This document shows positions 2,824-27,816 of a DNA stretch of 64,000 nucleotides, in pieces (the first letter of the stretch is position 1; every line of letters starts with the position of its first letter). The DNA is from Thermoanaerobaculaceae bacterium (GTDB taxonomy: Bacteria; Acidobacteriota; Thermoanaerobaculia; Multivoradales; UBA5704): contig CAVQIV010000026.1 of the NCBI GenBank assembly GCA_963712665.1, positions 257,045-321,044 of the forward strand. Reading direction: 5' to 3'. Position numbers and translations under genes: made by a program. The notes beneath the pieces were generated by a model that saw nothing but the letters and a program-made list of their open reading frames with translations, had not been told where the DNA came from and ran no database searches.

Positions 2824-2957
2824 CGTCAGGTGAACGTTACCGCACTTATCCTGACTGCACCACGCGAAACGGATGGGCCGCGACGGTGAACCTCTGGCGG
2901 CCCCAACCGTCCATGCTCTACCTCTCTCCCGTGTTCGTCCCCCTGAAGTTAGTTAGA

Positions 2958-3335
2958 GCAGAAAACTTCTGGGAAAGATCTTCTCAGCCTCTGAAAGGCC
3001 TTTTAGCCTCAGAAATACTCAATTCGACCTGAGAAAAGACCTTTTGGATCTGGAAAAGGTCTTTCAATCCAGTAATGCTCCGTTGTCTCGGGCAAAGACC
3101 TTTTGGGCAAGCAAAAGATCTTTCTCTCTCGGGGAAAGACTTTTCAAGATCAGAAAAGGTCTTTTCCCCGAGGCAGAGACTCAATCCTCGGGGAAAAGAC
3201 CTTTCGCCTGGGCGTGGAAGTCATTCCGCAGAGAATAGACCTATTGCCACAGGGGAAATGCCTTTTCCGGGTTCTCGACCGCAAATCCGGTCCCGAAAGG
3301 TCTTTTGGGCCGAGAGAAAGGTCTTTTGACCGCGG
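2958..3335. repeat. array of about 19 short palindromic units (core AAAGRYCTTT, e.g. GAAAAGACCTTTT / GAAAAGGTCTTTT / AAAGGCCTTT) spaced 18-23 bp apart, mean about 20 bp
   Basis: Hand-located cores centred near 2965, 2978, 2999, 3017, 3039, 3058, 3077, 3098, 3118, 3139, 3159, 3180, 3198, 3221, 3239, 3261, 3287, 3301 and 3321. The region is markedly AT-richer than its flanks. All six frames carry only short repetitive ORFs. Confidence 0.85.
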
Positions 3336-3615
3336 CACTCCAAGGGTGCCGTTTCTCAGCTTTCCAGGAGGAGGGCGATCCTCCGAAGGCGGGTATGGCA
3401 TCGAACCGGGGCAACAGCCTAGCCCCAGGGTGCTCCTCGGGCGCTTATACGCCACAGCGCATTGCTTTGACGAGGATTCTGAAGAGGTGTAAGCTCGCTC
3501 TAGCCTCAAGAATTCGAGGAGATTAGCTCGATGTCCGCCGCCAAGTCACGATGCTTTTGGACGAAGGGAAGTGACGATATGGCAGTCGAAAGGGTTTGGT
3601 GCTTAGGCGGCGAAG

Positions 3616-4191
3616 GTGGCGAATAGGTTAGGCGCGATAAGGAGCTGTCTGCCAGTGGATAATCAAGCCGGTCCATCGGACGAGCTTCGGCTGTCAAGGG
3701 AGGAGCGTATAGCCGCCATCGCTGTTCCTTTGACGGCTGCTATCGCTCTTCTTGTAGTAGCCGCAGTGCGCATGCCGCGCTCCGACCTGGGAGATTGGGC
3801 TAGCGCTCTTGGCGATATCGGCACATTTATTGTCTCTCTGCTTGGCGCAGCCGCAGCAGTCTGGTGGTGGAAGCATCGTGGCTCTGCCTCCCCCCGCTTG
3901 AAGGTGACTCAGTCTGTCAACATACTACCTTCCACAGGAAGCTACATTCCGCTGTACATTACTGCACACTTGGAAAATGTCGGTGAAGTGCCTGTCGTTC
4001 TCACGAAGTGGTGCTTGTGGGCTACCGACATGCTCCCTCTTCCGCCTACTATCGATGGCCTTCTGAATGCCGATCCGGATCGGTCATGCCGAGACTATCG
4101 GTTGCCGTGGAAGGCAGCTGCAGGCGCAGAATTTGAGATGCCTGAACAGGAAGCACCACGTGTGCGGCCTGGTGAAACCCAGAGGATATAG
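3616..4191 (+). CDS. hypothetical membrane protein (two predicted TM helices plus a C-terminal soluble domain); may continue to about 4326 through frame breaks
   Basis: ORF 3616..4191 with hydrophobic stretches IAAIAVPLTAAIALLVVAAV and IGTFIVSLLGAAAAVWWW. Protein-like reading continues downstream in other frames (REIYSFFPHDSLAKGGGRGWTSITIIELEKEV, stop near 4326). Low-GC segment. Confidence 0.4.
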   Translation: MANRLGAIRSCLPVDNQAGPSDELRLSREERIAAIAVPLTAAIALLVVAAVRMPRSDLGDWASALGDIGTFIVSLLGAAAAVWWWKHRGSASPRLKVTQSVNILPSTGSYIPLYITAHLENVGEVPVVLTKWCLWATDMLPLPPTIDGLLNADPDRSCRDYRLPWKAAAGAEFEMPEQEAPRVRPGETQRI

Positions 4192-4331
4192 GCGGTACTT
4201 TGCGAGTGCCGGCTGACGCGCGGTTGGTCCAGGGAGATCTACTCCTTTTTCCCACATGACAGCCTTGCCAAGGGTGGTGGCCGTGGCTGGACAAGCATCA
4301 CTATTATAGAACTAGAGAAGGAGGTTTAAGC

Positions 4332-4427
4332 ATGGAGCGAGAACGTGAAGGAGACAGAGATCGTCGTCCATTCGATCAACCCGATCGCTATCCAGATGCA
4401 GATCTTCCCTACGACCTCCCGGGCTGA
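4332..4427 (+). CDS. small ORF (31 aa, MEREREGDRDRRPFDQPDRYPDADLPYDLPG) with a strong Shine-Dalgarno; could extend to 4521 with a +1 shift
   Basis: AAGGAGG lies 7 nt upstream of ATG 4332. Not in the ORF track because it is under 60 aa. No recognisable family. Confidence 0.25.
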   Translation: MEREREGDRDRRPFDQPDRYPDADLPYDLPG

Positions 4428-4728
4428 TCCGGATGTCAAAAAAAGAGACCTTCCTACGATCCTCCGCATCGCGATGAGCCGCCAGAGCGCGGTCGGAGAT
4501 GAATGGGTGATCATCGCCTAACCCGTGGGCCTCAACCGGAGCGCCGCCTCCTGGCCGCTGAGCAGCATCTCAGTCGGTGCCGGCCAGTGAGATACCACGG
4601 AGAATCAGGGCACATTGGAGCTTAAGGCAGGGCGAGCATCCGACGGCTCAACCGCGAGTGGGCCGCAGTGCTTCTCCGGAAAGAGAAAACACAATTCACA
4701 CTAACGGCCACAACTTCGGGAGGGTCCC

Positions 4729-4945
4729 ATGGAACTGAAGACTCCGCAGGCGCAAGACGTCAGGAAACAGCTCGTCTACACTCCGGGTGCGTTGTCCTCC
4801 TTCCGGGACCTGGTCCAGTTCCTCGAGGCCAGCGAGTACATGCTGGCCCAGCTCATGATGCAGAACAAGATCTGGGTCGGAAATCCACCTAAGAATCCCG
4901 GCGGCTCTGGTGAGATCGAGTTCGGTCTGATCCCTTACTGGGTCC
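4729..4945 (+). CDS. probable N-terminal part of the downstream metallophosphoesterase, separated from it by a frame break near 4930-4950
   Basis: ORF 4729..5064 reads protein-like up to ...EIEFGLIPYW. The frame of ORF 5091..6167 is already open and protein-like from about 4914 (IVIADYLDSHEVTKFLWNLLETLLPAQIDSTKYAALIAAVKGQGL) but has no start codon there. Confidence 0.4.
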
Positions 4946-5090
4946 ACAACCCGCCATCGTCATCGCTGATTACCTCGACAGCCATGAGGTCACCAAGTTC
5001 CTTTGGAACCTGCTCGAGACTCTGCTGCCGGCGCAGATCGACTCCACGAAATATGCCGCCCTGATCGCGGCCGTTAAGGGGCAGGGGCTG

Positions 5091-6167
5091 GTGACCGCGG
5101 ACGGCTCGATCTATGGCACGGCTACTTACGAGCAACTCGATCCGGGCTGGATCTGGGGAGCGATCAACTATCTCATTGTCAAGTACGCCGGTGGCCTGGC
5201 GCCTTTCAGCACGACCAGCGTCAGCCCCATTACGCTCACCGGCAGCTCTCCCGATCAGGTGGTCCTCGCCTTGGTCGGCGATTGGGGCACGGGAGTGTAC
5301 CCTGGGGGCGTGGCCACGGACGTCCTCCAGCAGATCACTGATCTGAGCCCGGACTACATCATCCACCTGGGAGACGTCTACTATTCCGGCACGGCCGGCG
5401 ATTTCCTTCCGCTGCACGAGGAGAAGAACAACTTCGTGAATCTCTGGCCGGTGTCGACGCCGTCCTTCACGCTCAACTCGAACCATGAGATGTACGCCGG
5501 CGCCAAGGGTTACTTCGGGGTCGCGCTCGCCAACAGCCGCTTCTCCAAGCAGAAGAAAACCAGCTATTTCGCCCTGCAATACGGCGGCTGGACGCTGCTG
5601 GGCCTGGACAGCGCATACTTTTCGACCTCACCGTTGTACATGCTCGGCTCCATCGGCGGCGCTATGGGAACCCAGGCGAAGTGGATCCAGAAGCTGGGGC
5701 TCTCTGCCCAGAACGTGATCGTGCTCAGCCATCACACCGGATTGACCTTCGACGGGTCCTCGGAGCTGAGCCTGTGGGGAGAGGTCAATGCCGCTCTCGG
5801 GGGCGATCCAGCGGCGTGGTACTGGGGGCATATCCACAACGGGATCGTCTACAAAACTCCAACGGTGACTGGCCGGAAGACCCTGGCCCGCTGCCTCGGG
5901 CATGGCGCCCTCCCCTTCGGCCAGGCTTGGGGTCTCGTCAACGCCCCCTACGTCTCGTACTACGCCAACACCTTGAATCCCAACGGTGGCGGCGTGCGGG
6001 TCTACAACGGCTTCGCCCTCTTGACCATCACCAAGCAGGGAACGGTGACGGAGGCGTTCTATCAGCAGGACACCGCGCAGCCCGTCTACACGAACAGCTA
6101 CAGCCTGCCCTCAAATCGCTCGGCCAAGCCGAGGAGGAGCCCCAGGGCCAGGACACGGAGGGGCTAG
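5091..6167 (+). CDS. calcineurin-like metallophosphoesterase
   Basis: ORF 5091..6167. Motifs GDWGTG, HLGDVYYSG, NSNHEMY, VLSHH, WGHIHNG. The last roughly 14 codons read into a degenerate copy of the 7973-8166 repeat. Confidence 0.8.
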   Translation: MTADGSIYGTATYEQLDPGWIWGAINYLIVKYAGGLAPFSTTSVSPITLTGSSPDQVVLALVGDWGTGVYPGGVATDVLQQITDLSPDYIIHLGDVYYSGTAGDFLPLHEEKNNFVNLWPVSTPSFTLNSNHEMYAGAKGYFGVALANSRFSKQKKTSYFALQYGGWTLLGLDSAYFSTSPLYMLGSIGGAMGTQAKWIQKLGLSAQNVIVLSHHTGLTFDGSSELSLWGEVNAALGGDPAAWYWGHIHNGIVYKTPTVTGRKTLARCLGHGALPFGQAWGLVNAPYVSYYANTLNPNGGGVRVYNGFALLTITKQGTVTEAFYQQDTAQPVYTNSYSLPSNRSAKPRRSPRARTRRG

Positions 6168-6301
6168 CCGGGATGGGGGGAGATGGACGTCTGGGGAACG
6201 TTGTTGCAGAGAGGCAGCAAATCTGGGGTAGAATCGGCGAAATTTCAGAGGAGGCCGTCATGCCCATTGGAAGCTTGTTGCTGCCCGGCGTTGCATCGGC
6301 T
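6128..6301. repeat. copy 1 of a duplicated divergent-promoter module (about 175-195 bp, roughly 85% identical by eye to 7973-8166)
   Basis: Shared strings include GAGGAGCCCCAGGGCCAGGACACGGAGG, GCAGAGAGGCAG, GGGTAGAATCGGCGAAA, AGGAGGCCGTCATGCCC and CTGCCCGGCGT. This copy carries a decayed version (ATG->ACG plus a stop) of the N-terminus of the minus-strand gene seen at 8050. Confidence 0.8.
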
Positions 6302-6817
6302 GTCGCGGTGTTCATCGTGAGTGCCCTCGTCCACATGGTTCTGAGGTATCACCGGGCCGACTTCAAGCGGCTCCCGGACGAGGATTCGGTCGCCGCGGCC
6401 GTGCGCAAGGCCGCCCCGTCTCCCGGCGTCTACTTCATCCCCTACTGCGCCGAGATGTCCCAGATGAAGGATCCCGCCTTTCGCAAGAAGTTCGAGGAGG
6501 GTCCGGTCGTAAGCCTCGTCGTCCGGCGCAACGGTCCGCCGGCCCTCGGCAAGGGCCTGGCGCAGTGGTTCCTGTTCTGCCTCCTGGTGAGCTTCGTCGT
6601 CGCCTATGTGGCGCGCCATACGCTCACCTTCGGAGCTCCTGGCCAGGCGGTGATGCGCCTCACCGGGACCGTCGCCTTCGCTGCCTACGCCTTCGGGTAC
6701 CTTCAGAATTCCATCTGGGAGGGAATCCCCTGGTCCAACGCGCTGCGCGGTCTCATCGACGCCGTGCTGTACGCCCTGACGACCGGGCTCGTGTTCCGCT
6801 GGCTCTGGCCGGCGTGA
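6260..6817 (+). CDS. conserved-looking hypothetical membrane protein (about 185 aa, 4 TM)
   Basis: ATG 6260 is in frame within ORF 5681..6817 and preceded by AGGAGG. Hydrophobic helices at the N-terminus, middle (WFLFCLLVSFVVAYV) and C-terminus. Confidence 0.6.
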   Translation: MPIGSLLLPGVASAVAVFIVSALVHMVLRYHRADFKRLPDEDSVAAAVRKAAPSPGVYFIPYCAEMSQMKDPAFRKKFEEGPVVSLVVRRNGPPALGKGLAQWFLFCLLVSFVVAYVARHTLTFGAPGQAVMRLTGTVAFAAYAFGYLQNSIWEGIPWSNALRGLIDAVLYALTTGLVFRWLWPA

Positions 6818-6848
6818 GGCGCGGCGGGCGGCGGGAATCCGCCAGCCG

Positions 6849-6971
6849 CTACAGTTCGTCGCCGGGCTCGGGAGGAGTATCAGGTACCTTGGCAAGCACG
6901 GCCAGGAACTTCTCCCGGCTCCCGCGTCGGGCTCTTTCCTCGAGGTAATCCACCGTCAGGAGGGCCGCCAT
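6849..6971 (-). CDS. small ORF (40 aa, MAALLTVDYLEERARRGSREKFLAVLAKVPDTPPEPGDEL), possible antitoxin-type fragment
   Basis: Its ATG lies 1 nt after the stop of the 70-aa gene upstream. Its C-terminal ...FLxxLxKVPDxxPExxDEL resembles tails of small TA-associated proteins (from memory). Not in the ORF track because it is under 60 aa. Confidence 0.3.
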   Translation of the reverse strand: MAALLTVDYLEERARRGSREKFLAVLAKVPDTPPEPGDEL

Positions 6972-6972
6972 C

Positions 6973-7185
6973 TCAGCCTCTCTCGGTTCGCCGCTGTTTG
7001 ATCTCGGAGATGAGATCTTCCAAAGTCATTCCGGCATAGATCTCCCTCCGATCCTCCGTATAATTTCCCGTGCCCGAAGTAAACTGGTTGATAAATCGAA
7101 CGGCGTTCGCGACTCCGAGCTCGCGGTACAGGAGGCGGATGGCTTCTTGGTTGATTTCAGCGAGAGGCTTCAATGGGAGTGTCAT
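6973..7185 (-). CDS. 70-aa protein translationally coupled downstream of a PIN toxin (putative cognate antitoxin/partner)
   Basis: ORF 6973..7185. ATGA overlap with the PIN gene stop. Low-GC cassette. Confidence 0.5.
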   Translation of the reverse strand: MTLPLKPLAEINQEAIRLLYRELGVANAVRFINQFTSGTGNYTEDRREIYAGMTLEDLISEIKQRRTERG

Positions 7186-7622
7186 AGTCCTAGCTCCACG
7201 ATTAGCTCCAAAGGAGATACCACCTTAGTTCCCTCAATCATCATGCTCTTGGCCTTGCGAAGGAGCTTGTCATCACAGGTGCAGAAGAAATCGGCTCCTG
7301 CTTCGATGGCTGATGCGAGATGAAGGGCATCCAAGGGTGATATTCCAAGATCTCGCAAATTGCCTGCCCGTTCGAGGACGGCTTCGGTTGCATCGATATA
7401 GCTCGTGGCCTTTGACAGCGCCTCGTAAGCGTGAGTGCTCCGTAGGGGATCTTGTATCCGTTCGATCTCAAACTGCAAGACCTCTGACGCAACCAACGTA
7501 ATCTGACCCTCGCTGCACTCTGTGAGGACTGCCAGGACCGCCTCCGCTTCGAGGTGGATCCGGGCATGCGACTTGATGTCCCAGGGACGCTCAAGGCTGC
7601 AGGTGTCAAGGTAGACCCTCAT
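7182..7622 (-). CDS. PIN-domain ribonuclease (VapC-like toxin)
   Basis: ORF 7182..7622. Acidic PIN residues in MRVYLDTC, SEVLQFEIE, DALHLASA and CTCDD. Confidence 0.85.
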   Translation of the reverse strand: MRVYLDTCSLERPWDIKSHARIHLEAEAVLAVLTECSEGQITLVASEVLQFEIERIQDPLRSTHAYEALSKATSYIDATEAVLERAGNLRDLGISPLDALHLASAIEAGADFFCTCDDKLLRKAKSMMIEGTKVVSPLELIVELGL

Positions 7623-8050
7623 GTCAGCGTGCCCCAGGCAACAGAAATCCTACCACTCCGCTTCGACAGCGAGCAAGTTCTCACCCCTGCCAGCGAGGTG
7701 ATCCCGTCGTCAGGAGGCCGGATCAGCCGCAGCCCTGCGGCGGCCACCAGGTTGAGCAGCACGAAGGCGAGGGCGGCGTTGAAGACGATCAGAGCCAGGG
7801 CAGTGTAGACAGCCCGGAAGCGCTGGAAGAGGCTCGAGAGGGTGGCTCTCTCGCCCGCCGGCGCCCACGGCCCGAGGAAGCTCGGGGCCAGGACCACGGT
7901 CCCCACGATCACCATCAGCCACTGGCGCTCGCCGAACCCTGGCGCGCCGATCCCCAACGCGTCCGCTCCCAGGCCGAGGAGGAGGAGCCCCAGGGCCAGG
8001 ACACGGAGGGTCCAGAGGAGGGGCTTGCCGGGATTGGAGGGGATGGACAT
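7619..8050 (-). CDS. hypothetical membrane protein, probably 3'-truncated by insertion of the PIN cassette
   Basis: ORF 7619..8050. N-terminal TM-rich part (LRVLALGLLLLGL, WLMVIVGTVVLAP, ALALIVFNAALAFVLLNLVAA). The last roughly 30 aa fall in the low-GC cassette and end in an ATGA overlap with the PIN start. Confidence 0.45.
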   Translation of the reverse strand: MSIPSNPGKPLLWTLRVLALGLLLLGLGADALGIGAPGFGERQWLMVIVGTVVLAPSFLGPWAPAGERATLSSLFQRFRAVYTALALIVFNAALAFVLLNLVAAAGLRLIRPPDDGITSLAGVRTCSLSKRSGRISVAWGTLT

Positions 8051-8166
8051 AGGGGAAACGTTATCGCAGAGAGGCAGAAATTTTTAGGGTAGAATCGGCG
8101 AAACTTTGTAGGACAGGAGGCCGTCATGCCCCTTGGAAGCCTGTCGCTGCCCGGCGTCGTTTCGGC
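7973..8166. repeat. copy 2 of the duplicated divergent-promoter module (see 6128-6301)
   Basis: Contains the intact start of gene 7619..8050. It also holds only the first roughly 14 codons (MPLGSLSLPGVVSA) of a paralogue of the 6260 membrane gene. Confidence 0.8.
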
Positions 8167-8192
8167 TGGGTACTTTGGATGGGGAGGTACTC

Positions 8193-8411
8193 TTGACTCG
8201 CATCCTTGAGGCTGTCTACGAAGATGGTGTGCTGAGGCCGCTGGAAGATCCAGGGCTGAAGGAGCACCAGCACGTCCTGCTCGAGATCCGGACCGAGCCA
8301 GAGGAGCATGCCTCATCAGCACTCGAGGCATGGCATCGGGTTTATGAGGGGCTGCCTGAAGACGATATCGCTGAGATCGAGGCCATCGCCCTGGATCGGA
8401 GCCATTTCTGA
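8193..8411 (+). CDS. DUF104/AF2212-like antitoxin family protein
   Basis: TTG 8193 is in frame in ORF 8133..8411 with GGAGG 5 nt upstream. N-terminus ILEAVYEDGVLRPLEDPGLKEHQHVLLEI matches the xxEAVYENGVLKPLE signature (from memory). Confidence 0.55.
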   Translation: MTRILEAVYEDGVLRPLEDPGLKEHQHVLLEIRTEPEEHASSALEAWHRVYEGLPEDDIAEIEAIALDRSHF

Positions 8412-8523
8412 TAACCTGATTGCCGCCACGGCTCTCGTGCATGGCCTGCAGCTCGTGACTGAAAATCCCTCCCATTTCAGCCGCATCCCCGATCTCGTCT
8501 TCGAGGGTTGGCGCTCCTCCTGA
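8404..8523 (+). pseudogene. C-terminal remnant of a PIN (VapC) toxin gene
   Basis: ORF 8308..8523 ends ...DNLIAATALVHGLQLVTENPSHFSRIPDLVFEGW, a typical VapC C-terminus. The N-terminal two thirds of a PIN domain are absent. Confidence 0.6.
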
Positions 8524-8550
8524 TCTTTGGGGCAAAATCGCCGCCGGCAC

Positions 8551-9519
8551 CTAGGCCCTCTCCATATAGCCGTTGCCGACGACTTTCAGCAAGACGCGGC
8601 CCACGGTGGGATCGGTACGCTCGTGGATCGGCTTGACCACGCATCCTTCCCGGACGTGGTCGGCGCCGGGGACGAGGCTGGGGCCTTCCGCCAACTCCAG
8701 GATGCGGTCGAGCTCGAATGGGACGGCCTCGGCGATCGTAGGCACCCAGGGGAGGCCGAAGGGGATCGATGCTTCACGAGCCTCCTGGGGGTCCTTCCAT
8801 TCGCTGCCGGCCAGGATATCGAAAGCGGCAAACCGGACCTGGCCCTTCGTCGTGCCGTACTTCAGGTCCTGGACCTGGCCGTAGACCTCGCCGTAGACGG
8901 TGACGCCCGGGTTGGCCGCCAGGAAGTCACGCAGCCCCTGGGTCTCGCGCAGCGCCCGCCACCAGAGGTTGTCGTCGGACTCCTTTTTCCACTCCGTGCG
9001 GGAGCCGCAGAAGAAGCCGCCCTCTTCCAGGTAGGTGAAGCGACCGTTCGCGCCGTGAACTTTCTCACTGACGAACACGGGTTCCCCTGGAATGAAAACG
9101 GTTGCATATCGACGCAAGCTATCAACATCGAACGACGGTCGATACCCGGGAGGCGGCTTGATCGATTCTCCTCCCGTGCTGAACGGCAGGGGTGGATCGT
9201 AGTGCGTCACCCCCAGCAACGGGGCCACGTCGTCGCCGATCGCCGATCCTTCGGGAGCTGGCACCAGCAATCCCATGCTGATGATCCCGCGGAGCCGGCG
9301 GACCTTGATCCTGCGGTGTCCGTCGAGGAAGGCGAACTCGGGCGTGTCGGGGACCACGGAATCCGGCGGAATGTAGGCGCCGATCTCGCGACCGGTCCAG
9401 TCCGCGGTGCGGACGCAGACGGTGTAGCCATCGAAGACGCGGACGACGGACAGCGAATCCGCGTTGGGATGGGGCTCCAGGTGAACGGGGACGACTTCGA
9501 CTCGGTGTGTGCTGTTCAT
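8551..9519 (-). CDS. ATP-dependent RNA ligase, DraRnl (DRB0094)/Rnl5-like: N-terminal tRNA-binding-type OB domain plus Rnl2-like nucleotidyltransferase domain
   Basis: ORF 8551..9540; ATG at 9519 has the better RBS spacing. HPNADSLSVVRV resembles the PheT/EMAP-type OB motif. SEKVHGANG matches ligase motif I (T4 Rnl2 EKIHGTN). Confidence 0.75.
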   Translation of the reverse strand: MNSTHRVEVVPVHLEPHPNADSLSVVRVFDGYTVCVRTADWTGREIGAYIPPDSVVPDTPEFAFLDGHRRIKVRRLRGIISMGLLVPAPEGSAIGDDVAPLLGVTHYDPPLPFSTGGESIKPPPGYRPSFDVDSLRRYATVFIPGEPVFVSEKVHGANGRFTYLEEGGFFCGSRTEWKKESDDNLWWRALRETQGLRDFLAANPGVTVYGEVYGQVQDLKYGTTKGQVRFAAFDILAGSEWKDPQEAREASIPFGLPWVPTIAEAVPFELDRILELAEGPSLVPGADHVREGCVVKPIHERTDPTVGRVLLKVVGNGYMERA

Positions 9520-9595
9520 GAATGGCTCCAATCCAGGCAATCCTCCCCCCGCCTGGGTTTTCGAAGTATACTACCTTGGATTCCTCGGAGTATCC

Positions 9596-9856
9596 ATGAG
9601 CCAGGTAGAAATGATTGAACGACAGATCGAGCAGCTCTCGCAGGAAGAGTTGGCCAGATTCCGAGAGTGGTTCGCGAGGTATGACGCGGAGGCTTGGGAC
9701 CAGCAGTTCGAACAAGACGTCCAGGCCGGTAAGCTCGACGCTCTCGCTGAACGTGCACTTCGGTCGGTTGGCTCTAGGCCGTTTTCCCCCTGCTCTTCCC
9801 CCGCCGCTTGCCAGGCTTCTCCTCATCGATCTCCTGCCAGAAATCCTCGTGGCTGA
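9596..9856 (+). CDS. small addiction-module-type protein; C-terminus probably replaced or overlapped by the convergent Phd gene
   Basis: ATG 9596 within ORF 9509..9856. MSQVEMIERQIEQLSQEELARFREWFARYDAEAWDQQFEQDVQAGKLDALAERALR resembles small TA-associated proteins. The last roughly 28 aa overlap 9774-10076 on the other strand and look non-native. Confidence 0.4.
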   Translation: MSQVEMIERQIEQLSQEELARFREWFARYDAEAWDQQFEQDVQAGKLDALAERALRSVGSRPFSPCSSPAACQASPHRSPARNPRG

Positions 9857-10076
9857 TTCCCTCTCCTTCGCGGATCTGCTGGCGCGAGGTCTCCAGGATA
9901 GCCCGCAAGCGAACCGAGTGGGCCAGGACCAGGCGTTCGAGCTCCTCGTCGTCCCGCACGGCCAGCAAGGCGGCGACCGCCTTGCCGTTGCGCGTGACGA
10001 CCACCAGCCCCTGTTCGCTCTCCTTCAGATAGGCGCTGAACTGGGCCTTGACTTCTGCGACCGAGGCGATCTTCAA
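9774..10076 (-). CDS. Phd/YefM-family antitoxin
   Basis: TTG 10076 is in frame in ORF 9774..10214 and overlaps the toxin stop (TTTGA). KIASVAEVKAQFSAYLKESEQGLVVVTRNGKAVAALLAV is a typical Phd/YefM N-terminus. Confidence 0.8.
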   Translation of the reverse strand: MKIASVAEVKAQFSAYLKESEQGLVVVTRNGKAVAALLAVRDDEELERLVLAHSVRLRAILETSRQQIREGEGISHEDFWQEIDEEKPGKRRGKSRGKTA

Positions 10077-10239
10077 AGCTCTACCTCCTCTCCGCCGATG
10101 ACCAGGCGATCCCGCTCCTTGACGCCGATCGCCAGGATGTACACCTTGTGGTTCTCCCGGTCGATCTCGTAGAAAGCCCGGAACCGATTGTCGGGACCGA
10201 ATCGCAGCTCCCATTGCGCCTCGAAGACGGCAGGTTGCT

Positions 10240-10337
10240 GCAGTGGCTTGCGGTTCCTGGTCTCAGCATCTGGCTCGAACAGCAACTGCTCCTGGAGGGT
10301 CTCGCGAATCAACGAGTAATGCTGCCGCTCGATGGCC
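10240..10337. repeat. direct repeat, copy 1 (98 bp; 97/98 identical to 10501-10598)
   Basis: GCAGTGGCTTGCGGTTCCTGGTCTCAGCATCTGGCTCGAACAGCAACTGCTCCTGGAGGGTCTCGCGAATCAACGAGTAATGCTGC(C/T)GCTCGATGGCC occurs twice at an offset of 261 bp. Confidence 0.95.
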
Positions 10338-10500
10338 GAAGGTGTGTTGATTTTTTTTTGTGTTGTTTAGGTGTTTTGTTTTTTGTTGTGTTGTTAGGTT
10401 GTATTTTTGTGGTTTTTTTGGTTGTTTTTGTAGTTAGTTTGGTATTGTTTGTTGGGATTGTTTTGTAGCTTTTATTGTGTTTTGTAGATGGTAGGTTGTT
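10338..10500. other. 163-nt G/T-rich tract with a single C (10469): hypermutated copy of toxin-gene sequence 10083-10239 plus about 14 nt of gene sequence 5' of the repeat
   Basis: Hand alignment of 10396-10500 to 10131-10239 is colinear with one 1-nt deletion. Every difference is plus-strand C->T or A->T, and all G and T are retained. Confidence 0.9.
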
Positions 10501-10598
10501 GCAGTGGCTTGCGGTTCCTGGTCTCAGCATCTGGCTCGAACAGCAACTGCTCCTGGAGGGTCTCGCGAATCAACGAGTAATGCTGCTGCTCGATGGCC
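10501..10598. repeat. direct repeat, copy 2 (see 10240-10337)
   Basis: See copy 1. Confidence 0.95.
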
Positions 10599-10761
10599 CG
10601 AAAGGTGCTGCTTGACTTCGGGCGCGTAGACCAGGGAGTAGGGTTGCCGCCTCACCATGGTGACCAGAATTGTGACTATCGAAGCTTTGCTTGTCAACCG
10701 CCCGACTGTGGAGGGCAAAATCGCGAGGGGGCCGCGTCGCGGCCCCCTCAATCCTCAGAAC

Positions 10762-13497
10762 CTAATACCGCACGATCGCCGACAGCACCAACGCCCGAGG
10801 GGGCGAGAGCTGGGTGGGCTGGCCGAAGGCCGGGTTGTTGGAAGGCTTCAGCAGCGGGTTGGGACCCGGGTTTGCAGGATCGAGCGGTGAGTTCAAGAGG
10901 TAGCGGTCGTCCACTTGTAGCGCCACCTGCTGGTTGAAGAGGTTGGTGATGCGCGCTTCGAGCTCCACTCCGGTGCGGCCGAAGCGCAGCTCGTAGGAGG
11001 TGAGCAGGTCGACGTTCAGCCAGTCTTCCATGCGCCGCGAGCCCGCAGGCTCCAGATACCGGAAGTAGCTGCTGGTTACGTTGGCCGACGGTTGCGCCCG
11101 GGCCTCCCAGGCGCCGCCGCTCTGGTAGCGGACGTAGGTGCCGACGCGCAGCCGGTTCATGGGCTCGATGGTGGCGAAGATCTTGGCGAGATGGGTGCGG
11201 TCGCCGCGCAGCAGGCCGTTCCTGTTGTCGGTGATCAGCACGCCCGGACCGTCCTGGAGGATGGAGGAGTTGTAGAAGAGAGAGTCGGCGTAGTCGATGT
11301 CCCAATTCCCCTTCAGGCGGCTCCAGGTGTAGCTGGCGTTCATCCAGAGGTGCATGAAGCGGTCGTTCGCGGGCCGGCGGTTGAGCTCCAGGGTGGCGGC
11401 CGTGTAGCGCCGGTAGGCGCCCGGGAGCTGGCCGACGTGGAAGGGACCGTTGCCGAGGCCGTCGGCGCTGATGTCCTCGAAGATGTTCTTGACGTTGCGG
11501 TACATCCCCCAGACCTCCGCCGACCAGATGTTGCCCAGGGGTCGGGCGTAGCCGACGAGGAATTCGTCGGTGAACATCGGATCGATCCCCTTGTCGATCG
11601 TCTTGGTCTGGGTATTGGCGGCCGGCACTTCGGAGATGAGGTTGCCGGCGGCGTCGAAGGTGGCCCGGGTGGTGAAGATGCGGGTCGGCGAGCCGGCGCG
11701 GGTCAAGGACTTGTTATCGGTGTTGAAGTAGCGGCCGGCGCTGGCGTACACCTTGTCGCCCCGCTGCGGATCGAGCACGTGGGAGATGCCGAGCCGCGGC
11801 TGGATCTCCTGACCCCAGTCGAAGGTGAGGATCTTCTTCTTCACCTTGGTGCCCGGCGTAGACCCCAGGGCCTCGCCGTAGTAGTCGTCCTTGTTGACCA
11901 GGAGACCGGCGGTGAGGGTGGTGCGCTCGCCCAGGGCCATCTGGTCCTGGAGGAAGGCGCCGTAGGTCTTGGCGCGGCCGGTGTGCGGCGGCTGGATGGA
12001 GTTGTAGGTGGCCGTGAACCGCTGAGTGGTGGCGCTCCAGGTGATGGCCCCCCAGCCGTTGCCCACCCGCCGCAGGACCTCCTCGTTCTGGTCGTAGTTG
12101 ATGCCGGCCCGGACGTCGTGCCTCGTCTCACCCAGGCTGACGAAGCGCTGCAGGCTGAGCCGCGCCTCGTCGCGCTTGAAGTCCTGGAAGTTGTTGAGGC
12201 TCGCGCCGCCCACGGTCTGGCCGGGAGCCGTGGCGCCACCGATGATGCGGTCCGGCGTGGTCGAGAACTGTCCCACCAGGTCCGGGCGGGCGGCGTTGAA
12301 GGCCGGCTTATAGCCGAGGTCGGTGATGGGGATGCCCGAGTTCTCCTCTTTGTTGTGGTTGAGCTTGAGCTCGACCAGGCTGTCCGCCGACAGGTTCCAG
12401 GTCCAGGCGACGGTGCCCAGCAGGTAGTCGGTCGAATCGTCGGTCGCCACGCTCGGGTGAGTGCTGACGCCGATACCCGAGTTCTTCGTCGTGGTGTCGC
12501 GCGAGCGCACGGCCGCGGCGATGAAGTGGGTCGAGGTCGGGTTGGCCGTCAGCTTGCCGAAGTACTCGTCGGTCTCCTCCTTGCGGTCCGGCACCGTGCC
12601 GAGGTTGTTGGTGCGGTCGAGGAGGGTCTCGCTGGGCTGGCCCGCGGAAGCGTAGAACCAGAAGCGGTCGCGCAGGATGGGCCCGCCGAGCGAGCCGGCC
12701 AGCAGGCTGCGTTCCAGGGTGTTCTGGAAGCTCGGGATCTTGCTGTCGGACACGAAGCTCTTCGATTGGTTTTCGCCCCGGAGCTGGCCGTGGAAGTCGT
12801 TGGTTCCCGAGCGGGTGATGGCGTTGACCACCATGCCGGCCGAGCGGCCGTATTCGGCGGAGATGCCGCCGCGCTTGATGCTCACCTCGGCGATGTCGAG
12901 CTCCGTGACGTTGGGCAGGATGTCCCCGTAGTGGGGGTTGGTGACGTTGATGCCGTCGATGAGATAGGTGTTGTCCATGCGCGCCGCGCCGGCGTTGGGC
13001 GCCAGGCGGCCGTTCTCGGAGACGCCGGGCGCGAGCTGGAAGAGCCCTTTGTAGGTGCGCGGCACGGGCAGGTCCTCGACCTTATCGCTGCTGTAGTTGA
13101 CCTGGATGTCGCTCGACTTGACGTCGATGATCGGCAGGGCTGCGGTGACGGTGATCTCCTCGGCGACGGACGGCTTGATCGCCAGCTCGACCTGGGTGTC
13201 GCGGTCGAGGGCGACGACGGCCGGCTGCTTGACGCTGCCCATGCCGGACAGCTCGGCCGTCACCTCGTACTCGCCGGGCGGCAGGCGCAGGATGCTGAAC
13301 GCGCCTTTGTCGTCCGTCACGGCCGTGCGGCCGGCGGGCAGGAGCGGACCCCTCGCCGTCACCGTGACGCCGGGTAGCGGCGCGCCGGCGGCGTCGTGGA
13401 CCGTGCCGGAGATCGAGCCGGTGACCTGCGCGAACGCGGCCCCGGCCGGGAAGATCAGGACGAGCAGACAGAGATAGAAGATCAACCTTCTGGACAT
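10762..13497 (-). CDS. TonB-dependent receptor-like outer-membrane protein with N-terminal carboxypeptidase-regulatory-like domain
   Basis: ORF 10762..13497 (911 aa). Signal peptide; CarboxypepD_reg motif SGTVHDAAGAPLPGVTVTA...DDKGAFSILRLPPGEYEV; plug and barrel; C-terminal aromatic residue (…AIVRY). Confidence 0.9.
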   Translation of the reverse strand: MSRRLIFYLCLLVLIFPAGAAFAQVTGSISGTVHDAAGAPLPGVTVTARGPLLPAGRTAVTDDKGAFSILRLPPGEYEVTAELSGMGSVKQPAVVALDRDTQVELAIKPSVAEEITVTAALPIIDVKSSDIQVNYSSDKVEDLPVPRTYKGLFQLAPGVSENGRLAPNAGAARMDNTYLIDGINVTNPHYGDILPNVTELDIAEVSIKRGGISAEYGRSAGMVVNAITRSGTNDFHGQLRGENQSKSFVSDSKIPSFQNTLERSLLAGSLGGPILRDRFWFYASAGQPSETLLDRTNNLGTVPDRKEETDEYFGKLTANPTSTHFIAAAVRSRDTTTKNSGIGVSTHPSVATDDSTDYLLGTVAWTWNLSADSLVELKLNHNKEENSGIPITDLGYKPAFNAARPDLVGQFSTTPDRIIGGATAPGQTVGGASLNNFQDFKRDEARLSLQRFVSLGETRHDVRAGINYDQNEEVLRRVGNGWGAITWSATTQRFTATYNSIQPPHTGRAKTYGAFLQDQMALGERTTLTAGLLVNKDDYYGEALGSTPGTKVKKKILTFDWGQEIQPRLGISHVLDPQRGDKVYASAGRYFNTDNKSLTRAGSPTRIFTTRATFDAAGNLISEVPAANTQTKTIDKGIDPMFTDEFLVGYARPLGNIWSAEVWGMYRNVKNIFEDISADGLGNGPFHVGQLPGAYRRYTAATLELNRRPANDRFMHLWMNASYTWSRLKGNWDIDYADSLFYNSSILQDGPGVLITDNRNGLLRGDRTHLAKIFATIEPMNRLRVGTYVRYQSGGAWEARAQPSANVTSSYFRYLEPAGSRRMEDWLNVDLLTSYELRFGRTGVELEARITNLFNQQVALQVDDRYLLNSPLDPANPGPNPLLKPSNNPAFGQPTQLSPPRALVLSAIVRY

Positions 13498-15100: not shown

Positions 15101-17396
<2,296 letters not shown>

Positions 17397-21546: not shown

Positions 21547-22728
21547 CTAGCCGGCCACGTCGAACTGCGTCCGCACGGGCGCGCCGTGGGCGAAGGCGGG
21601 GCGGTCGAGGGCGAAGAGGGGGAGGGGGGCGCGATCAGCGAGGATCGTTTCGGCGGCGTACTCGCCCAGGGCGGGGCCGAGCTTGAAGCCGTGGCCGGAG
21701 CCGCCGCCTAAGAGCCAGACGTTCGCGGCATGGGGGTGGCGGTCGAAGAGGAGGTGGCCGTCGGGGGTGTTCTCGTACTGGCAGACCCGGGCTTCTACCA
21801 GCGGGGCGCGGGCGAGGTCGGGGAAGCGGCGGGCCACGGCGGCGCGGGAGGCTTCGAGGAGAGAGGGGGTGACGGTGCGCTCGGCGGTGGTGGGGTCGAG
21901 GGGCTCGCCCCGGGTGTCGTCCGCCACCTTGAAGCCGCGGTGCTCGTTGCCGGGGATGCCGTAATAGATCCGCTCGCTGCTCAGGTCGATCCACACTGGG
22001 CAGGCGCCCTCCTGGAAGCGGCGGTCGCCGGGTGGCGTACCGAGGTAGAAGACCTCCTGGCGGGTGGAGAGGAGCCGGCGCTCGCCGATCACTTCGGGGA
22101 AGAGACCGCCGAGCCACGGTCCGCAGGCGAAGACGTAGAGGTCCGCGGCTAGGGTGGAGCCATCGGAGAGGTCGAGATGCTCCAGGCGATCCTTCTGGAA
22201 AGGACCGGGCGCGGCAGCCGCGATCCTAACCTCCCCTCCCTCGGCAACGACCGCCGCGGCTACGGCCTGGCAGGCGCGGCGGGCGAGGAGATAGCCGGCT
22301 TCCTCTTCGAGGTGGATGCTCGCGACACCGTCGAAATCGATCTGGGGGAAACGGTGGCGGGCCTCGGAGAGGCTCAGCTCGGCGATGGCCAGGCCGGCTT
22401 CGGCGAGCAGGGGGAGCGAGGAGCGGACGTAGCCGTCGTCCTCTCCGCTCATCCAGAGGCAGCCGGTGCGCCGGTAGAGGGGCACGCCCCAGCGCGCCTC
22501 GGCCTCGCGCCAGAGGGGGAAGGCGCGGGCCACCCAGTCCACGTAGACCTTGTCGGGTCCGTAGACACCGCGGATGATCCGCGTCTCGCCTCCCGAGCTG
22601 GAGCGGGAGTGGCCGGGACCCCAGGCGTCCAGCAGGGTGACGCGGGCGCCCCGGCGGCGCAGCTCCAGGGCTGTCCAGCCGCCGAAGACGCCGGCGCCGA
22701 TGACCGCGATGTGAGGGGAAGAGGACAT
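21547..22728 (-). CDS. FAD-dependent oxidoreductase (DAO/sarcosine-oxidase-like)
   Basis: ATG 22728 in ORF 21547..22812. Dinucleotide fold IAVIGAGVFGGWTALELRRRGARVTLLD; C-terminal GGSGHGFK. Confidence 0.85.
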   Translation of the reverse strand: MSSSPHIAVIGAGVFGGWTALELRRRGARVTLLDAWGPGHSRSSSGGETRIIRGVYGPDKVYVDWVARAFPLWREAEARWGVPLYRRTGCLWMSGEDDGYVRSSLPLLAEAGLAIAELSLSEARHRFPQIDFDGVASIHLEEEAGYLLARRACQAVAAAVVAEGGEVRIAAAAPGPFQKDRLEHLDLSDGSTLAADLYVFACGPWLGGLFPEVIGERRLLSTRQEVFYLGTPPGDRRFQEGACPVWIDLSSERIYYGIPGNEHRGFKVADDTRGEPLDPTTAERTVTPSLLEASRAAVARRFPDLARAPLVEARVCQYENTPDGHLLFDRHPHAANVWLLGGGSGHGFKLGPALGEYAAETILADRAPLPLFALDRPAFAHGAPVRTQFDVAG

Positions 22729-22732
22729 TCCT

Positions 22733-23639
22733 TTACATAGACCCTTGGGTGGAGAGCACCCCATGCCGGCCGCGGACAGGAGCGTAATACATCGGACAGG
22801 CAGGGAGCGCACTCTGGCGCTGCCGCTCGGCGAGGAGCTTCGCCCAGGGGGACGCAGCGCAGGCCCGCCGTTTTCGCTTGCCGCAGGAAGGTCCGGAAAT
22901 CCTCGGCGTAGGGTCCGCCCTCCAACTCGGAGTGGAGAGTGAAGACGGGCCAGGAGGATCGCGCCGCCTCCTCCACCATGGCCGCGAAAAAAGGAGGCGC
23001 CTCCGAGAAGGTGTCCCCCAAGGCCTCATCCAGGGTCGGAAGGGTGGCGGGGACCTGGGGCGTCTTCAGGGTCCGGCCTCGTACGACCGGGAGGAACGGC
23101 TCGGTGCCCCGGCAGTCGGTCGCATAGGCGAGTCCATAGGTCTCCTCGTGGAGCAGGGCATCGTCGCTGGTCAGCCAGGCTGGAGCCGCGTAGGTGCGAG
23201 GGGTTTCGCCGAAGATGGATTGATAGGCGCGGAACCCCTTGTCGAGCTCGCCGGCCGTCCGCTCGGGAGGGAAGCGGAGGAGGCGGTCCTGCCACTTCCG
23301 GTGATCCCAGGCGTGGACACCCGTTTCGTGACCTTCGTCGCGAATCCGGCGGGCGATCTCCGGGAAGGCGGTGGCGATGGGGCGCGAGGGGAGGAGAGTC
23401 CCCGAGAGAATGGTGCGCAGGCCATAGACCCGGGCCGCGCCCGTACGGGTCATCTTGCGCAGGAATCCCGGACGCAGGGCGTTGAGCACCGCGAGGCCGC
23501 TCCTGTCCGGTCCCATGGAGAGGTAGAAGGTGGCCTTCACCCCTTCTTCCTTCATGACGTCGAGCAGCCGGGGAACGCCGAGGCGCATGCCGTCGTGGGT
23601 GTCGACGTCGACCCGCAGGCCGAGCACCGGGGGAGTCAT
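22733..23639 (-). CDS. arnD: polysaccharide deacetylase family, ArnD-like 4-deoxy-4-formamido-L-arabinose-phosphoundecaprenol deformylase; one frame break near 22870
   Basis: [17 protein letters not shown]...ATFYLSMGPD...HAWDH in ORF 22449..23906. The C-terminus continues in ORF 22733..23029. ATGA overlap with the upstream arnA(DH). Confidence 0.75.
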
Positions 23640-24672
23640 GCCAGAGCGCCCGTGCGCTGCCAGTCTTCGAGGAAGGCCTCGTAGGTGCGCTCCAGGGCCT
23701 CGTCGAGGGTGGTCTCCGGGTTCCAGCCCAGAAGGCGCCGCGCCTTCTCGATCGACGGCTTGCGCGCCACGATGTCCTGGTAGCCCTTGCCGAAGTAGGC
23801 GTCGGAGCTGACCTCCTCCAGGCGCGCCGGCACGAAGCCGGGGAGGGTGTCGCGATGGAGCTCGTGGATGGCCGCCAGCTTCTGCGCCAGCTCGATCACC
23901 GAGCACTCGTTTTTGGGGTTGCCGATGTTGTAGATCTCGCCGTCGCAGACGCCGCCGGGGTTCTCGATGATGCCATCAGCGGGTCGATGCCGTCGTCGAT
24001 GTAGGTGAAGGCGCGCTTCTGCTTGCCGCCGTCGACCAGCTTGATGGGCTCGCCGCGCACGATGTTGCCGAGGAACTGGGTGAGCACGCGCGAGGTGCCT
24101 TCCTTGGCGGCGTAGATGTCGTCGAGCCGCGGGCCGATCCAGTTGAACGGCCGGAAGCAGCGTGTAGCGAGCTCCTCCTGCTGGCCGTAGGCGTCGATGA
24201 CGCGGTCCATGAGCTGCTTGGAGCAGGCGTAGATCCAGCGCTGCTTGTCGATCGGGCCGTAGACCAGAGGGCTCGAGGTCTCGTCGAACTCCTCGTCGGG
24301 GCACATGCCGTAGACCTCGGAGGTCGAGGGGAAGACGAGCCGCTTGCGGTACTTCACGCAGACGCGGACGATCGGCAGGTTCTCCTCGAAGTCGAGCTCG
24401 AAGACCCGCAGCGGCTCCTTGACGTAGGTGGCCGGCGTCGCGATCGCGACGAGCGGCAGCACCACGTCGCACTTCTTGACGTGGTACTCGATCCACTCCT
24501 TGTTGATCGTGATGTCGCCTTCGAGGAAGTGGAACTGCGGGTGGCCCAGGGAGTGGTCGAGCTTGGAGGAGGCGATGTCCATCCCATAGACGTGCCAGTC
24601 GGTCGTGGTGACGATGCGATGGGTCAAGGCATTGCCGATGAAGCCGTTGACCCCGAGGATGAGCACGTTCAT
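23636..24672 (-). CDS. arnA: UDP-glucuronate decarboxylase/oxidase (ArnA C-terminal dehydrogenase domain as a separate gene); one frame break near 23975
   Basis: [16 protein letters not shown]...STSEVYG...YACSKQL in ORF 23896..24687. The C-terminus (GEIYNIGNP...[15 protein letters not shown]) is in ORF 23636..24496. GGAGG lies 8 nt upstream of ATG 24672. Confidence 0.85.
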
Positions 24673-24686
24673 GGACGAAACCTCCA

Positions 24687-25610
24687 TCAGGAGCCGAGAC
24701 GCTCGCCGGGCGTGATGCCCATGGTCAGAGCCAGGGAGCAGGCGGGCAGCTCGGGCTGCCCTTCGAGCTGCAGAGTGACGAGCCGGACCGCAGTATCTCC
24801 GTCGTGGCCAGCCGCCACGGTCATGCCGTCCGCGTCGACCGTGACGACCGTACCTGGCTCAGCGCTCACCCCGGCGACCGGCAGGGCCCACCAGACCAGG
24901 AGCCGGCGACCCCGCAGCGTGGTGAAGGCTCCGGGATAGGGGTGGGTCACGGCGCGCACCAGATCATAGATGCGGCCGGCGGGCCACGACCAGTCGATGC
25001 GCCCGTCGGCCGGCTTGCGCCCGCCGCGATAGGAGCCCTGGGAGAGGTCGAGGGGCACGGCCTGCGCCGTCCCCGCTGCGAGAGCCGGGAGGGCGCGGTC
25101 GAGGAGGCGCCGGGCGGCGTGCTCCAGCTTGCCGTAGAGGGTGAAGGCGGTGTCCGCGGGATCGATCGCCACCCGCTCCTGATCCACCAGGGCGCCGGCG
25201 TCCGGCTTCTCCGCCATGTAGTGGAGGGAGGCGCCGGTCTCCCTCTCCCCCTCGACCAGCACCCAGTTGACGGGCGCCCGGCCGCGGTAGCGGGGCAGGA
25301 GCGAGCCGTGCAGGTTGAGGGCTCCCCTCCCTGCCTGAGCGAGCACTGCGGGCGGGATCATGAGGCGATAGTAGAAGGAGAAGAGGAAGTCCGGCGCATA
25401 CGAGGCCACGAGGTCCCGCACGGCCGGGTCCTTCGCGTCCTCCGGATAATGCACCGGGATGCCCCGGGCCTCCGCGCGGGCGGCCAGCGACTCCCACCAG
25501 ATTTCCTCGTGGGGGTCGTCGCGATGGGTGAGGACGGCGGCCACCTCGAAACCGTGGGCGAGCAGGGCGTCGAAGCCCAGGCAGCCCATGGTGTGGTAGC
25601 CCATCACCAC
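24687..25610 (-). CDS. arnA: UDP-4-amino-4-deoxy-L-arabinose formyltransferase (ArnA N-terminal domain), in frame with arnC upstream
   Basis: [34 protein letters not shown]...[18 protein letters not shown] aligns with E. coli ArnA 1-300 (from memory). No stop codon separates it from the ArnC C-terminus in ORF 24687..25853. Confidence 0.85.
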
Positions 25611-26595
25611 CGTTCGCGTCCCTTCACTCGGCGTCTCCACCCCGCCGGGGGCTCCGACGCCGTCGCGGATCACCTGGCGGACGATGAAGCGGGGCCGGTG
25701 GCGCACCTGCTGATAGATCCGCCCCACGTACTCGCCCAGGAGGCCGATGGCGAAGAGCTGGGTCCCGAGGAAGAAGAAGACCAGGGCGAAGAGGGTGAAG
25801 ACGCCGCTGACCGCCCAGCTCTGACCGTAGATCAGCCGGCCGGCGATCAGCACCGAGGCCGAGGACCATGGAGATGACCGCCATCACGACGCCGACTCCC
25901 ATGGTGACGCGCAGGGGGAGCACGGAGAAGCTGGTCATCAGGTCGAACTGCAGCCGGACGAGCTTCAGGAAGCTGTACTTGCTGGTGCCGTGGTGGCGTT
26001 CGTCGTGAGCCACCGGCACCTCGGTGACGCGGCCGGCGAACAGGTCGGCGAGCACGGGGATGAAGGTCGAGATCTCCCGCGACGAGGCGAGCACCTTGAC
26101 CACCGGCCGGCGGTAGGCCCGCAGCATGCAGCCGTAGTCGGTGAGCTGGACGCCGGTCGCGACGGCGGTCATCCGGTTGATGATCCGCGAGGCCACGCGG
26201 CGCAGCAGGGGGTCCTGGCGGTGGACGCGCACCGAGCCCACCACGTCGTAGCCCTCCTCCATCTTGGCCACCAGCTTGGGGATCTCCTCCGGCGGGTTCT
26301 GCAGGTCGGCATCCAAGGTGACGACGACCTCGCCGCGGCAGACCTCGAAGCCGGCGAAGACGGCGGCGTGCTGGCCGTAGTTGCGGTTGAAGTCCACCAC
26401 CACGAGGTGGGGATCGCGGGCCGAGGCCTCCTCGAGAAGGGCGAGCGAGCGGTCACGGCTGCCGTCGTTGACCAGCACGACCTCGTAGGGCTTCCCCAGG
26501 GGGACCAGGGTGCGGGTGAGCCGGTCCAGCAGCTCCGGGAGGTTCTCCTCCTCGTTGAACACGGGAATGACCACGGAAAGGTAGGGATCGGCCAT
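25611..26595 (-). CDS. arnC: undecaprenyl-phosphate 4-deoxy-4-formamido-L-arabinose transferase (GT2, ArnC); one frame break near 25860; apparently fused to the formyltransferase
   Basis: MADPYLSVVIPVFNEEENL...VNDGSRD...LDADLQNPPEEI in ORF 25624..26721. TM C-terminus GLLGEYVGRIYQQVRHRPRFIVRQVI is in ORF 24687..25853. Confidence 0.85.
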
Positions 26596-26609
26596 GCGCA
26601 GTCCTCCCT

Positions 26610-27789: not shown

Positions 27790-27816
27790 TTCGGGGAAGT
27801 CTCCGGAACCGGGCGG

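Follow-up and report, generated by a model that had tools for sequence, protein, structure and literature searches.

The DNA analysed here (the window, 64,000 nucleotides long, with a GC content of 68%) carries a toxin-antitoxin operon in which the antitoxin gene is intact and the toxin gene is split by a direct repeat (Table 1). The TTG start of the antitoxin overlaps the stop codon of the toxin (10073-10075), and the antitoxin is colinear with the 100-aa antitoxins of two loci from JGI soil metagenomes, L013 and L014. A Pfam search with the toxin as query retrieved only Gp49, as a sub-threshold match. When segments A, B, and C are joined and one A is removed from the AAA at 10601-10603, a protein of 107 amino acids is obtained, and it has 1088 homologues at an E value of ≤1e-3, most of them also 107 amino acids long. 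The best of these shows 95% identity over 100% coverage, and many carry PF05016 and the name RelE. This full-length homology of the rebuilt product places the host gene in the RelE/ParE superfamily, as the initial annotation had proposed. In the contig, two lesions disrupt the toxin frame, the 261-nt repeat and the extra A (+1) at 10601-10603, and the earlier description of a split toxin gene beside an intact Phd antitoxin holds. The 79-aa open reading frame of the source record (10073-10312) corresponds to segments A and B, and its protein cluster has a single member.

The closest loci are L013, L014, and L001, the last from an Acidobacteria gp7 metagenome-assembled genome (MAG), and the relatives as a whole belong to the Thermoanaerobaculia and other Acidobacteriota. 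Comparison with related loci, which had been suggested beforehand, revealed a plain and intact toxin-antitoxin pair there, with the cognate antitoxin adjoining the toxin in L001, L013, and L014 as it does in the window. Among 14 related loci there were no base-depleted tracts or similar duplications, the only irregularity being an N-gap in L001. In L013 and L014, a DUF455 gene follows within 20 nt after the antitoxin. In the window, the DUF455 gene lies at 2047-2823, separated from the antitoxin by 6.95 kb of DNA of lower GC content (51 to 64%) that encodes PIN, AF2212-like, metallophosphatase, and RNA ligase proteins and is missing in the closest relatives. The toxin locus therefore stands at the edge of a strain-specific island. 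The flanking genes, one for a 329-aa RNA ligase and the other the 911-aa gene, are clean. No match to known RNA families was found with Rfam between 8 and 12 kb.

Table 1. Features of the toxin-antitoxin locus and of two further genes in the window
Feature	Position	Strand	Remarks
Phd/YefM-type antitoxin gene, 100 aa, TTG start	9774..10075	minus	PF02604, E = 1.5e-10; intact
Toxin gene, RelE/ParE superfamily	10658-10073	minus	Split by head-to-tail repeat at an offset of 261
Segment A, unaltered toxin 3' end	10073..10239	minus	Source of converted copy; matches toxin 3' end of relatives
Segment B, first 98-nt copy	10240..10337	minus	Ancestral CGG (Arg) codon at 10326
Segment c'	10338..10350	.	Apparent C-to-T copy of 10600-10614; GGTGCTGCTTGA to GGTGTGTTGA
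T9 run hiding the duplication junction	10351..10359	.	First bases of A'
Segment A', converted copy of 10085-10239	10351..10500	.	Alignment and substitution table
Segment B', second 98-nt copy	10501..10598	minus	Single C-to-T change at 10587
Segment C, toxin 5' end, ATG 10658-10656	10599..10658	minus	One extra A at 10601-10603
Sigma-70-like promoter, TTGACA-17-CACAAT	10669..10697	minus	Toxin-antitoxin operon; intact; also in L001
911-aa gene, TonB-dependent-receptor-like	10762-13497		Intact; likeness judged from sequence
Glutamate-carboxypeptidase-II-like M28 gene	17396-15104	minus	About 20 consecutive +1 shifts, 17167 to ~15420

A repeat search of the window and a comparison of the blocks recovered the head-to-tail duplication inside the toxin gene at an offset of 261, with 98-nt blocks that are 97/98 identical, just as first described. 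Read along the plus strand, the order is A, B, c', the T9 run, A', B', and C. The one mismatch between B and B' is a C at 10326 against a T at 10587. In the relatives the corresponding Arg codon is CGG or CGA, and therefore the C at 10326 is ancestral and the T at 10587 is a further C-to-T change; on the coding strand it turns Arg CGG into Gln CAG, and the 28 other C's of B' are untouched. Segment c' appears to continue B into C, an assignment made from a short stretch in which the A's are unconverted and two T runs are each one base short. Within the T9 run, c' ends with bases derived from CTTC and A' begins with bases derived from CTCCTCTCC. Since c' is already C-to-T converted, the conversion starts about 13 nt ahead of the junction. 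A' lands at CCTCCTCTCC (10084-10093), and the toxin gene contains no longer polypyrimidine run.

At the boundary between B and C, the relatives read GGCCCGAAGG, the first copy GGCCGAAGG, and the second copy GGCCCGAAAGG, so that neither copy is ancestral. The first copy lacks one C (CC at 10336-10337 against CCC in the relatives), and the second has gained an A (AAA at 10601-10603 against AA), which gives the +1 frameshift. All anomalies of the locus, namely the lost C at 10336-10337, the tract, the C-to-T change at 10587, and the gained A at 10601-10603, fall within approximately one repeat unit (10335-10603). The intact B/C junction deduced for this lineage had no match in JGI metagenomes.

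The tract at 10338-10500 is composed of 99 T, 48 G, 15 A, and a single C, at 10469, in agreement with the initial annotation. It is the sole place in the 64 kb where a 100-nt window contains three C's or fewer, and no G-depleted 100-nt window was found in the 64 kb. The colinearity of the tract with the intact gene, first proposed by hand against 10083-10239, was recovered computationally for 10351-10500 against 10085-10239, gapless from 10405 onwards at an offset of 261. A' aligns with A at a score of 263, whereas the 836 other tiles on both strands that served as background scored at most 118, with a mean of 90.7 (standard deviation, 8.5), which gives z = 20.

The substitutions between A and A' belong to two classes and no others, C-to-T at 51 of 52 C's and A-to-T at 12 of 24 A's, and all G's (42/42) and all T's (32/32) are kept. 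The computed table thus sustains the proposal that only C and A of the plus strand change, with G and T retained and a few 1-nt deletions. These deletions are five in number, all within the first 55 nt of A' and all in T runs created by the conversion. The outcome at A depends on its neighbours: A was converted in 10 of 11 cases when followed by A or T, close to the earlier hand count, in 0 of 7 when followed by G, and in 2 of 6 when followed by C. The preceding base predicts the outcome about equally well (10 of 12 converted after G, 0 of 7 after C or T). The only C of A' that escaped conversion, at 10469, sits in AGCT. On the right, the limit of the tract is 3 nt wide, with the C at 10499 converted and the C at 10502 not, and the proportion of converted C's drops from 51/52 in A' to 1/29 in B' (Fisher's exact test, P = 2e-19). 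Viewed on the coding strand, the changes are G-to-A and T-to-A, with A untouched. The conversion is saturating, set by context, and sharply bounded, and it does not look like random damage. Saturation and sharp ends fit a systematic conversion, whether chemical, by forced misincorporation, or by signal decoding.

The contig that carries the locus is 1,248,910 bp long yet rich in indels, and at least 26 frameshifting indels occur in the 64 kb, so that read-level error is present elsewhere in the window. The clearest case is the M28 peptidase gene, where one G, C, or A at a time is inserted, mostly outside long homopolymers. When stitched, its product of 721 amino acids aligns over residues 46 to 708 with PDB 3fec_A (E = 1e-101). 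Because at least 19 of the shifts run in one direction in a well-conserved protein, they represent consensus error and not natural decay. The shifted peptidase gene lies about 5 kb away from the toxin locus. A +1 shift is also found in ArnB, ArnC, ArnT, and RNase PH, and ArnA has one -1 shift; ArnB is split such that positions 2 to 195 of the Pfam DegT model fall in one open reading frame and positions 216 to 359 in the next. The contig has the appearance of a long-read consensus that is insertion biased and contains locally unpolished patches, the platform itself being judged only from the contig span and the error profile.

Given that the contig is error prone and that the anomalies are confined to one repeat unit, a single-read artefact is the favoured explanation. 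By a modest preponderance of the evidence, the extra bases are a false insertion that stems from one long read, mis-decoded or aberrant, and that escaped polishing, and the genome of the organism more likely lacks the feature. Irregularities occur only inside the inserted unit (10335-10603), and its flanks are clean, as would be expected of an insertion to which no second read contributes. Outside the tract, the inserted copy contains three errors in about 110 nt, which in our judgment resembles the raw error rate of long reads. As the repeat spans only about 269 nt, it must stem from one molecule, by a template switch of a polymerase or by a stretch being read twice. Furthermore, the conversion is saturating, set by context, and switched off within 3 nt, which argues for systematic decoding or chemistry. 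Every run that is undercounted is homopolymeric only after conversion, so the deletions are expected if neighbouring C and T signals were alike. The position at an island edge also counts toward an artefact, because assembly easily goes wrong there when strains are mixed.

Under the artefact explanation, the approximately 262 to 269 extra bases (~10335-10603) would be absent from the genome as the population carries it. The backbone of the draft contig would have been a single aberrant long read, in which part of the molecule had been sequenced twice and decoded wrongly in places, or which came from one odd molecule. Normal reads would then show a clean gap of about 261 nt when aligned at this position; polishing would repair the sequence on either side, and the insertion would stay in place uncorrected. 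In the badly decoded part (10338-10500), only the G and T signals would survive, with C always called T, A called T or A according to its neighbours, and adjacent pyrimidines collapsed into T runs that are too short. The remainder (10501-10603) would have been decoded normally, with errors at the level of a raw read, and the CC and the AAA may have stayed uncorrected through alignment ambiguity beside a long gap. In this scheme we infer both the single-read origin and the mis-decoding.

Systematic, strand-specific base-calling errors of nanopore sequencing have been documented for telomere repeats (bioRxiv 10.1101/2022.01.11.475254). The tract is like such miscalls in that the replacement of bases is strand specific, determined by context, and reproducible, and, as proposed here, like long-read glitches that survive polishing in being a stretch unsupported by normal reads within an indel-rich contig. 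It differs in that the published miscalls concern short tandem repeats or methylated motifs, never a unique coding sequence read twice with C-to-T and A-to-T changes. Three other technical origins were considered and set aside. There is no room for an adapter at the junction, as the bases from 10351 are explained by A and those up to ~10354 by C. A ligation or in-silico chimera would call for two independent fragments that overlap by just 269 nt, which is implausible in a metagenome. A colour-space or two-channel dye failure would alter G or T as well, or yield C-to-G or A-to-G changes.

Several observations speak against an artefact. We know of no described sequencing artefact that combines C-to-T with context-dependent A-to-T changes. 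The usual error of this contig is a +1 insertion, yet the tract shows deletions only. With normal coverage, pileup-based polishers should delete the insertion and mend both position 10587 and the AAA. A toxin gene is a rare site that tolerates or even favours such a lesion, and artefacts have no reason to choose it. Lastly, the landing on a polypyrimidine run and the conversion ahead of the junction better suit a T-rich 3' end that re-anneals on a purine-rich template, a physical event of polymerisation, than a fault in the signal.

The main alternative is a one-off real mutation, which we regard as possible though distinctly less probable. It posits about 270 nt of aberrant plus-strand synthesis, without proofreading and with practically no dCTP and little dATP, in which T had to be placed across from G in the template and, in some contexts, also across from T. 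The enzyme could have been a reverse transcriptase that copied the toxin mRNA, a polymerase of translesion synthesis or NHEJ, or a primase-polymerase. The growing 3' end, rich in T and mismatched, would have detached after GACTTC (10609-10614) and re-annealed on the complement of 10084-10093, where a nascent 3' end consisting only of T could re-pair through T:A and T:G pairs. A would then have been recopied in the same mode until fidelity returned at 10501, leaving behind a late C-to-T change and small indels, and the destruction of the toxin would have been tolerated because the antitoxin remains. The copying error suggested in the initial annotation stands in this form, as the main rival only.

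The appeal of aberrant synthesis is that a single patch covers everything: the conversion from about 13 nt before the junction, an error density that falls with distance, and the sharp end. No polypyrimidine run of the gene is longer than the one at the landing site, and a cDNA of the toxin-antitoxin mRNA would have the same polarity as the converted strand. A dispensable toxin gene as the location fits the survival of the event. Saturating G-to-A hypermutation by reverse transcriptase under dCTP starvation in vitro was reportedly described by Martinez, Vartanian and Wain-Hobson in 1994, and hypermutation under dCTP depletion was an early model for HIV hypermutants. The tract shares with it a near-saturating, one-stranded G-to-A change on the RNA-sense strand (C-to-T in the cDNA), independence of dinucleotide context, and frequent template switching. 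It differs in that the known hypermutation is retroviral or in vitro, that no reverse transcriptase was found in the window, that the A-to-T class is extra, and that integration into a bacterial chromosome is unheard of. To our knowledge, no such C-free synthesis event has been described for bacterial chromosomes.

Further points weigh against real synthesis. The window contains no gene for a reverse transcriptase or an error-prone polymerase, T mispairs poorly with T, and the model gives no reason for the context rule at A. No second example occurs in the 64 kb, where neither further base-depleted tracts nor like duplications were detected, and no independent assembly of the lineage confirms the tract. 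A search for an independent copy of the lineage found none, exact-protein look-ups for three window proteins were likewise negative, and a 43-nt piece of the tract had no match in GTDB species genomes or JGI metagenomes. Moreover, the base-level reliability of the contig is demonstrably poor. Literature searches returned no description of this signature, as an artefact or as biology.

Damage to exposed single-stranded DNA, the mechanism put forward first in the initial annotation, fares worse and is in our view improbable. It supposes a real duplication whose junction was single stranded, where C was deaminated by an ssDNA deaminase or by chemistry, A was damaged (possibly to m1A, etheno-A, or abasic sites), and the lesions were bypassed with insertion of A. 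Only C and A change, whose Watson-Crick faces are vulnerable when DNA is single stranded, and the changes are strand coordinated, with 51 of 51 C-to-T changes on the plus strand and no G-to-A. The GC skew is positive over 10 to 18 kb, which makes it probable that lagging-strand synthesis uses the plus strand as its template and that this strand is transiently single stranded. The sole surviving C lies in the palindrome AGCT, where it could be protected by methylation.

The proportion and the regularity of the changes are what count against damage. A deaminase cluster is partial, biased toward a motif, and of a single class, whereas here 51 of 52 C's are changed whatever their neighbours, together with 12 A-to-T changes and 5 deletions. 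Conversion of 98%, irrespective of the dinucleotide, matches neither the preference of any known deaminase nor a known lesion yield, and bypass of more than 60 lesions in 163 nt would have had to insert A every time. The A's respond in an all-or-none fashion set by their context, and the limit of the tract spans only 3 nt. Since deaminated A pairs with C, A-to-G changes would be predicted, of which none is seen, and no deaminase is present among the window proteins scanned. Clusters of APOBEC-type kataegis and those of DddA and SsdA resemble the tract in being strand-coordinated C-to-T changes tied to single-stranded DNA at breakpoints. Such clusters are sparse (a few to tens of per cent of the C's), biased toward TC or CC, and free of A-to-T, in contrast to the tract, where 98% of the C's in all contexts and half of the A's are changed.

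Several more specific forms of damage or modification were also rejected. Exposure in an R-loop would affect the other strand, since the plus strand is the transcription template. UV is at odds with the conversion of purine-flanked C's as well, and nitrous-acid-type deamination with the absence of A-to-G changes. A restriction-modification signal at AGCT was dismissed, as the motif is not depleted (observed/expected ratio, 1.27).

A programmed system, either diversification with a TR/VR pair like that of a diversity-generating retroelement (DGR) or silencing of repeats by a bacterial analogue of RIP, is hardly credible and is effectively refuted by the substitution table. As with a TR/VR pair, a tract of about 150 nt that differs from its template at particular bases only stands beside an identical block. 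DGRs alter template adenines only, to any base, keep the frame, lie at the 3' end of the target gene, and have a reverse transcriptase and an accessory gene nearby. Here the changes comprise 51 C-to-T and 12 A-to-T on the plus strand, so that they are not limited to the adenines of either strand, and they lead to one target base only. The copy wrecks the reading frame, and neither a reverse transcriptase nor Avd is located nearby. A Pfam scan of the approximately 50 window proteins identified no reverse transcriptase domain, no deaminase, and no Y-family polymerase. Fungal RIP likewise directs C-to-T changes at duplicated DNA and can be dense and strand biased. Unlike the tract, it is eukaryotic and premeiotic, prefers CpA, affects both copies along their length, and produces neither A-to-T changes nor indels; here a single copy is mutated, there is no CpA preference, and the relatives carry a plain intact gene.

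The initial annotation is thus borne out as an observation and only in part as an interpretation. The damage or deaminase part of its mechanism is disfavoured by the 98% conversion, the all-or-none behaviour of A, and the fall from 51/52 to 1/29 within 3 nt, an outcome that stochastic lesions do not produce.

If the tract is the artefact that we favour, it is a warning that long-read metagenome contigs can keep unpolished single-read insertions that mimic hypermutation, and G/T-only tracts beside short tandem repeats could serve as a screen of assemblies. There is a smaller chance that the tract is real DNA and records one episode of C-free synthesis in a cell of a soil Acidobacteriota bacterium (Thermoanaerobaculia-like), for example, during nucleotide-depleting phage defence or starvation. 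In that case, T would have been written opposite G for about 165 nt, and a slip back onto a purine-rich run would have produced the tandem duplication that killed the toxin. It would be the first trace in nature of DNA synthesis forced into a C-free mode by the nucleotide pool and coupled to template switching in a bacterial chromosome, and it would represent a mutation process undescribed in bacteria, in which C, and some A, is changed to T on one strand to saturation over about 160 nt. Such a process would bear on the scars that a collapse of the nucleotide pool or reverse transcription leaves in chromosomes, and on how toxin genes are lost.

The gene for an M28 peptidase resembling glutamate carboxypeptidase II/PSMA is broken by approximately 20 successive +1 frame changes, spaced at about one per 90 nt, and its stitched 721-amino-acid product matches PDB entry 3fec_A from end to end (E = 1e-101). 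The long genes adjoining it are intact, and the affected patch lies where the GC content of the region peaks (69 to 75%). This run of frameshifts looks like an unpolished patch of the consensus with an insertion bias. Isolated +1 frameshifts also occur in ArnB, ArnC, and ArnT of the aminoarabinose-type operon and in RNase PH, while the epimerase part of ArnA carries a -1 shift. Together with those of the peptidase gene, these bring the number of frameshifting indels in the 64-kb window to at least 26, nearly all of them insertions.

Coordinates of the features discussed (window positions)
Feature	Position	Strand or orientation	Remark
6.95-kb lower-GC island	2824-9773		between antitoxin and DUF455 gene
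Direct repeats, 64 and 54 nt, 83-89% identical	6157-6302 and 8017-8168		inside island
Glutamate-carboxypeptidase-II/PSMA-like M28 peptidase gene	15104-17396	-	shifts between 17167 and ~15420
Aminoarabinose-type operon and RNase PH, frameshifted	22449-29800 and 38278-39100	-	
Dense intergenic array, ~21-nt units around CCCTCGCGAG/CTCGCGAGGG	55938-56266	both orientations	

The island beside the antitoxin has a GC content of 51 to 64%, compared with 66 to 70% in its flanks, and separates two genes that adjoin directly in the closest related loci from soil metagenomes (L013 and L014). It carries genes for a metallophosphatase, for PIN and AF2212-like proteins of toxin-antitoxin type, and for an RNA ligase containing an OB fold. 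Its 6.95 kb showed no integrase. The direct repeats inside it lie 1.86 kb apart, and the copy at 8017-8168 is situated immediately upstream of the AF2212-like gene at 8133, overlapping the gene start. These repeats possibly represent duplicated 5' regions belonging to a pair of small paralogous toxin-antitoxin modules.

The intergenic array, which contains inverted arms of 75 to 79 nt with 80 to 85% complementarity, is located upstream of a 474-amino-acid gene at 56727 for which there is no Pfam match. The array may be a repeat element, or else a group of sites bound by a regulator. With regard to word usage, CTAG is strongly rarer than expected across the whole window (23 observed versus 96 expected, a ratio of 0.24).

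AGCT shows no depletion in the window, with an observed/expected ratio of 1.27. The sole C left in the converted tract of the toxin gene, at position 10469, belongs to an AGCT palindrome that corresponds to the ancestral AGCT at 10206-10209. If the conversion was a deamination, this C could be a methyl-protected cytosine; alternatively, it could have survived by chance.
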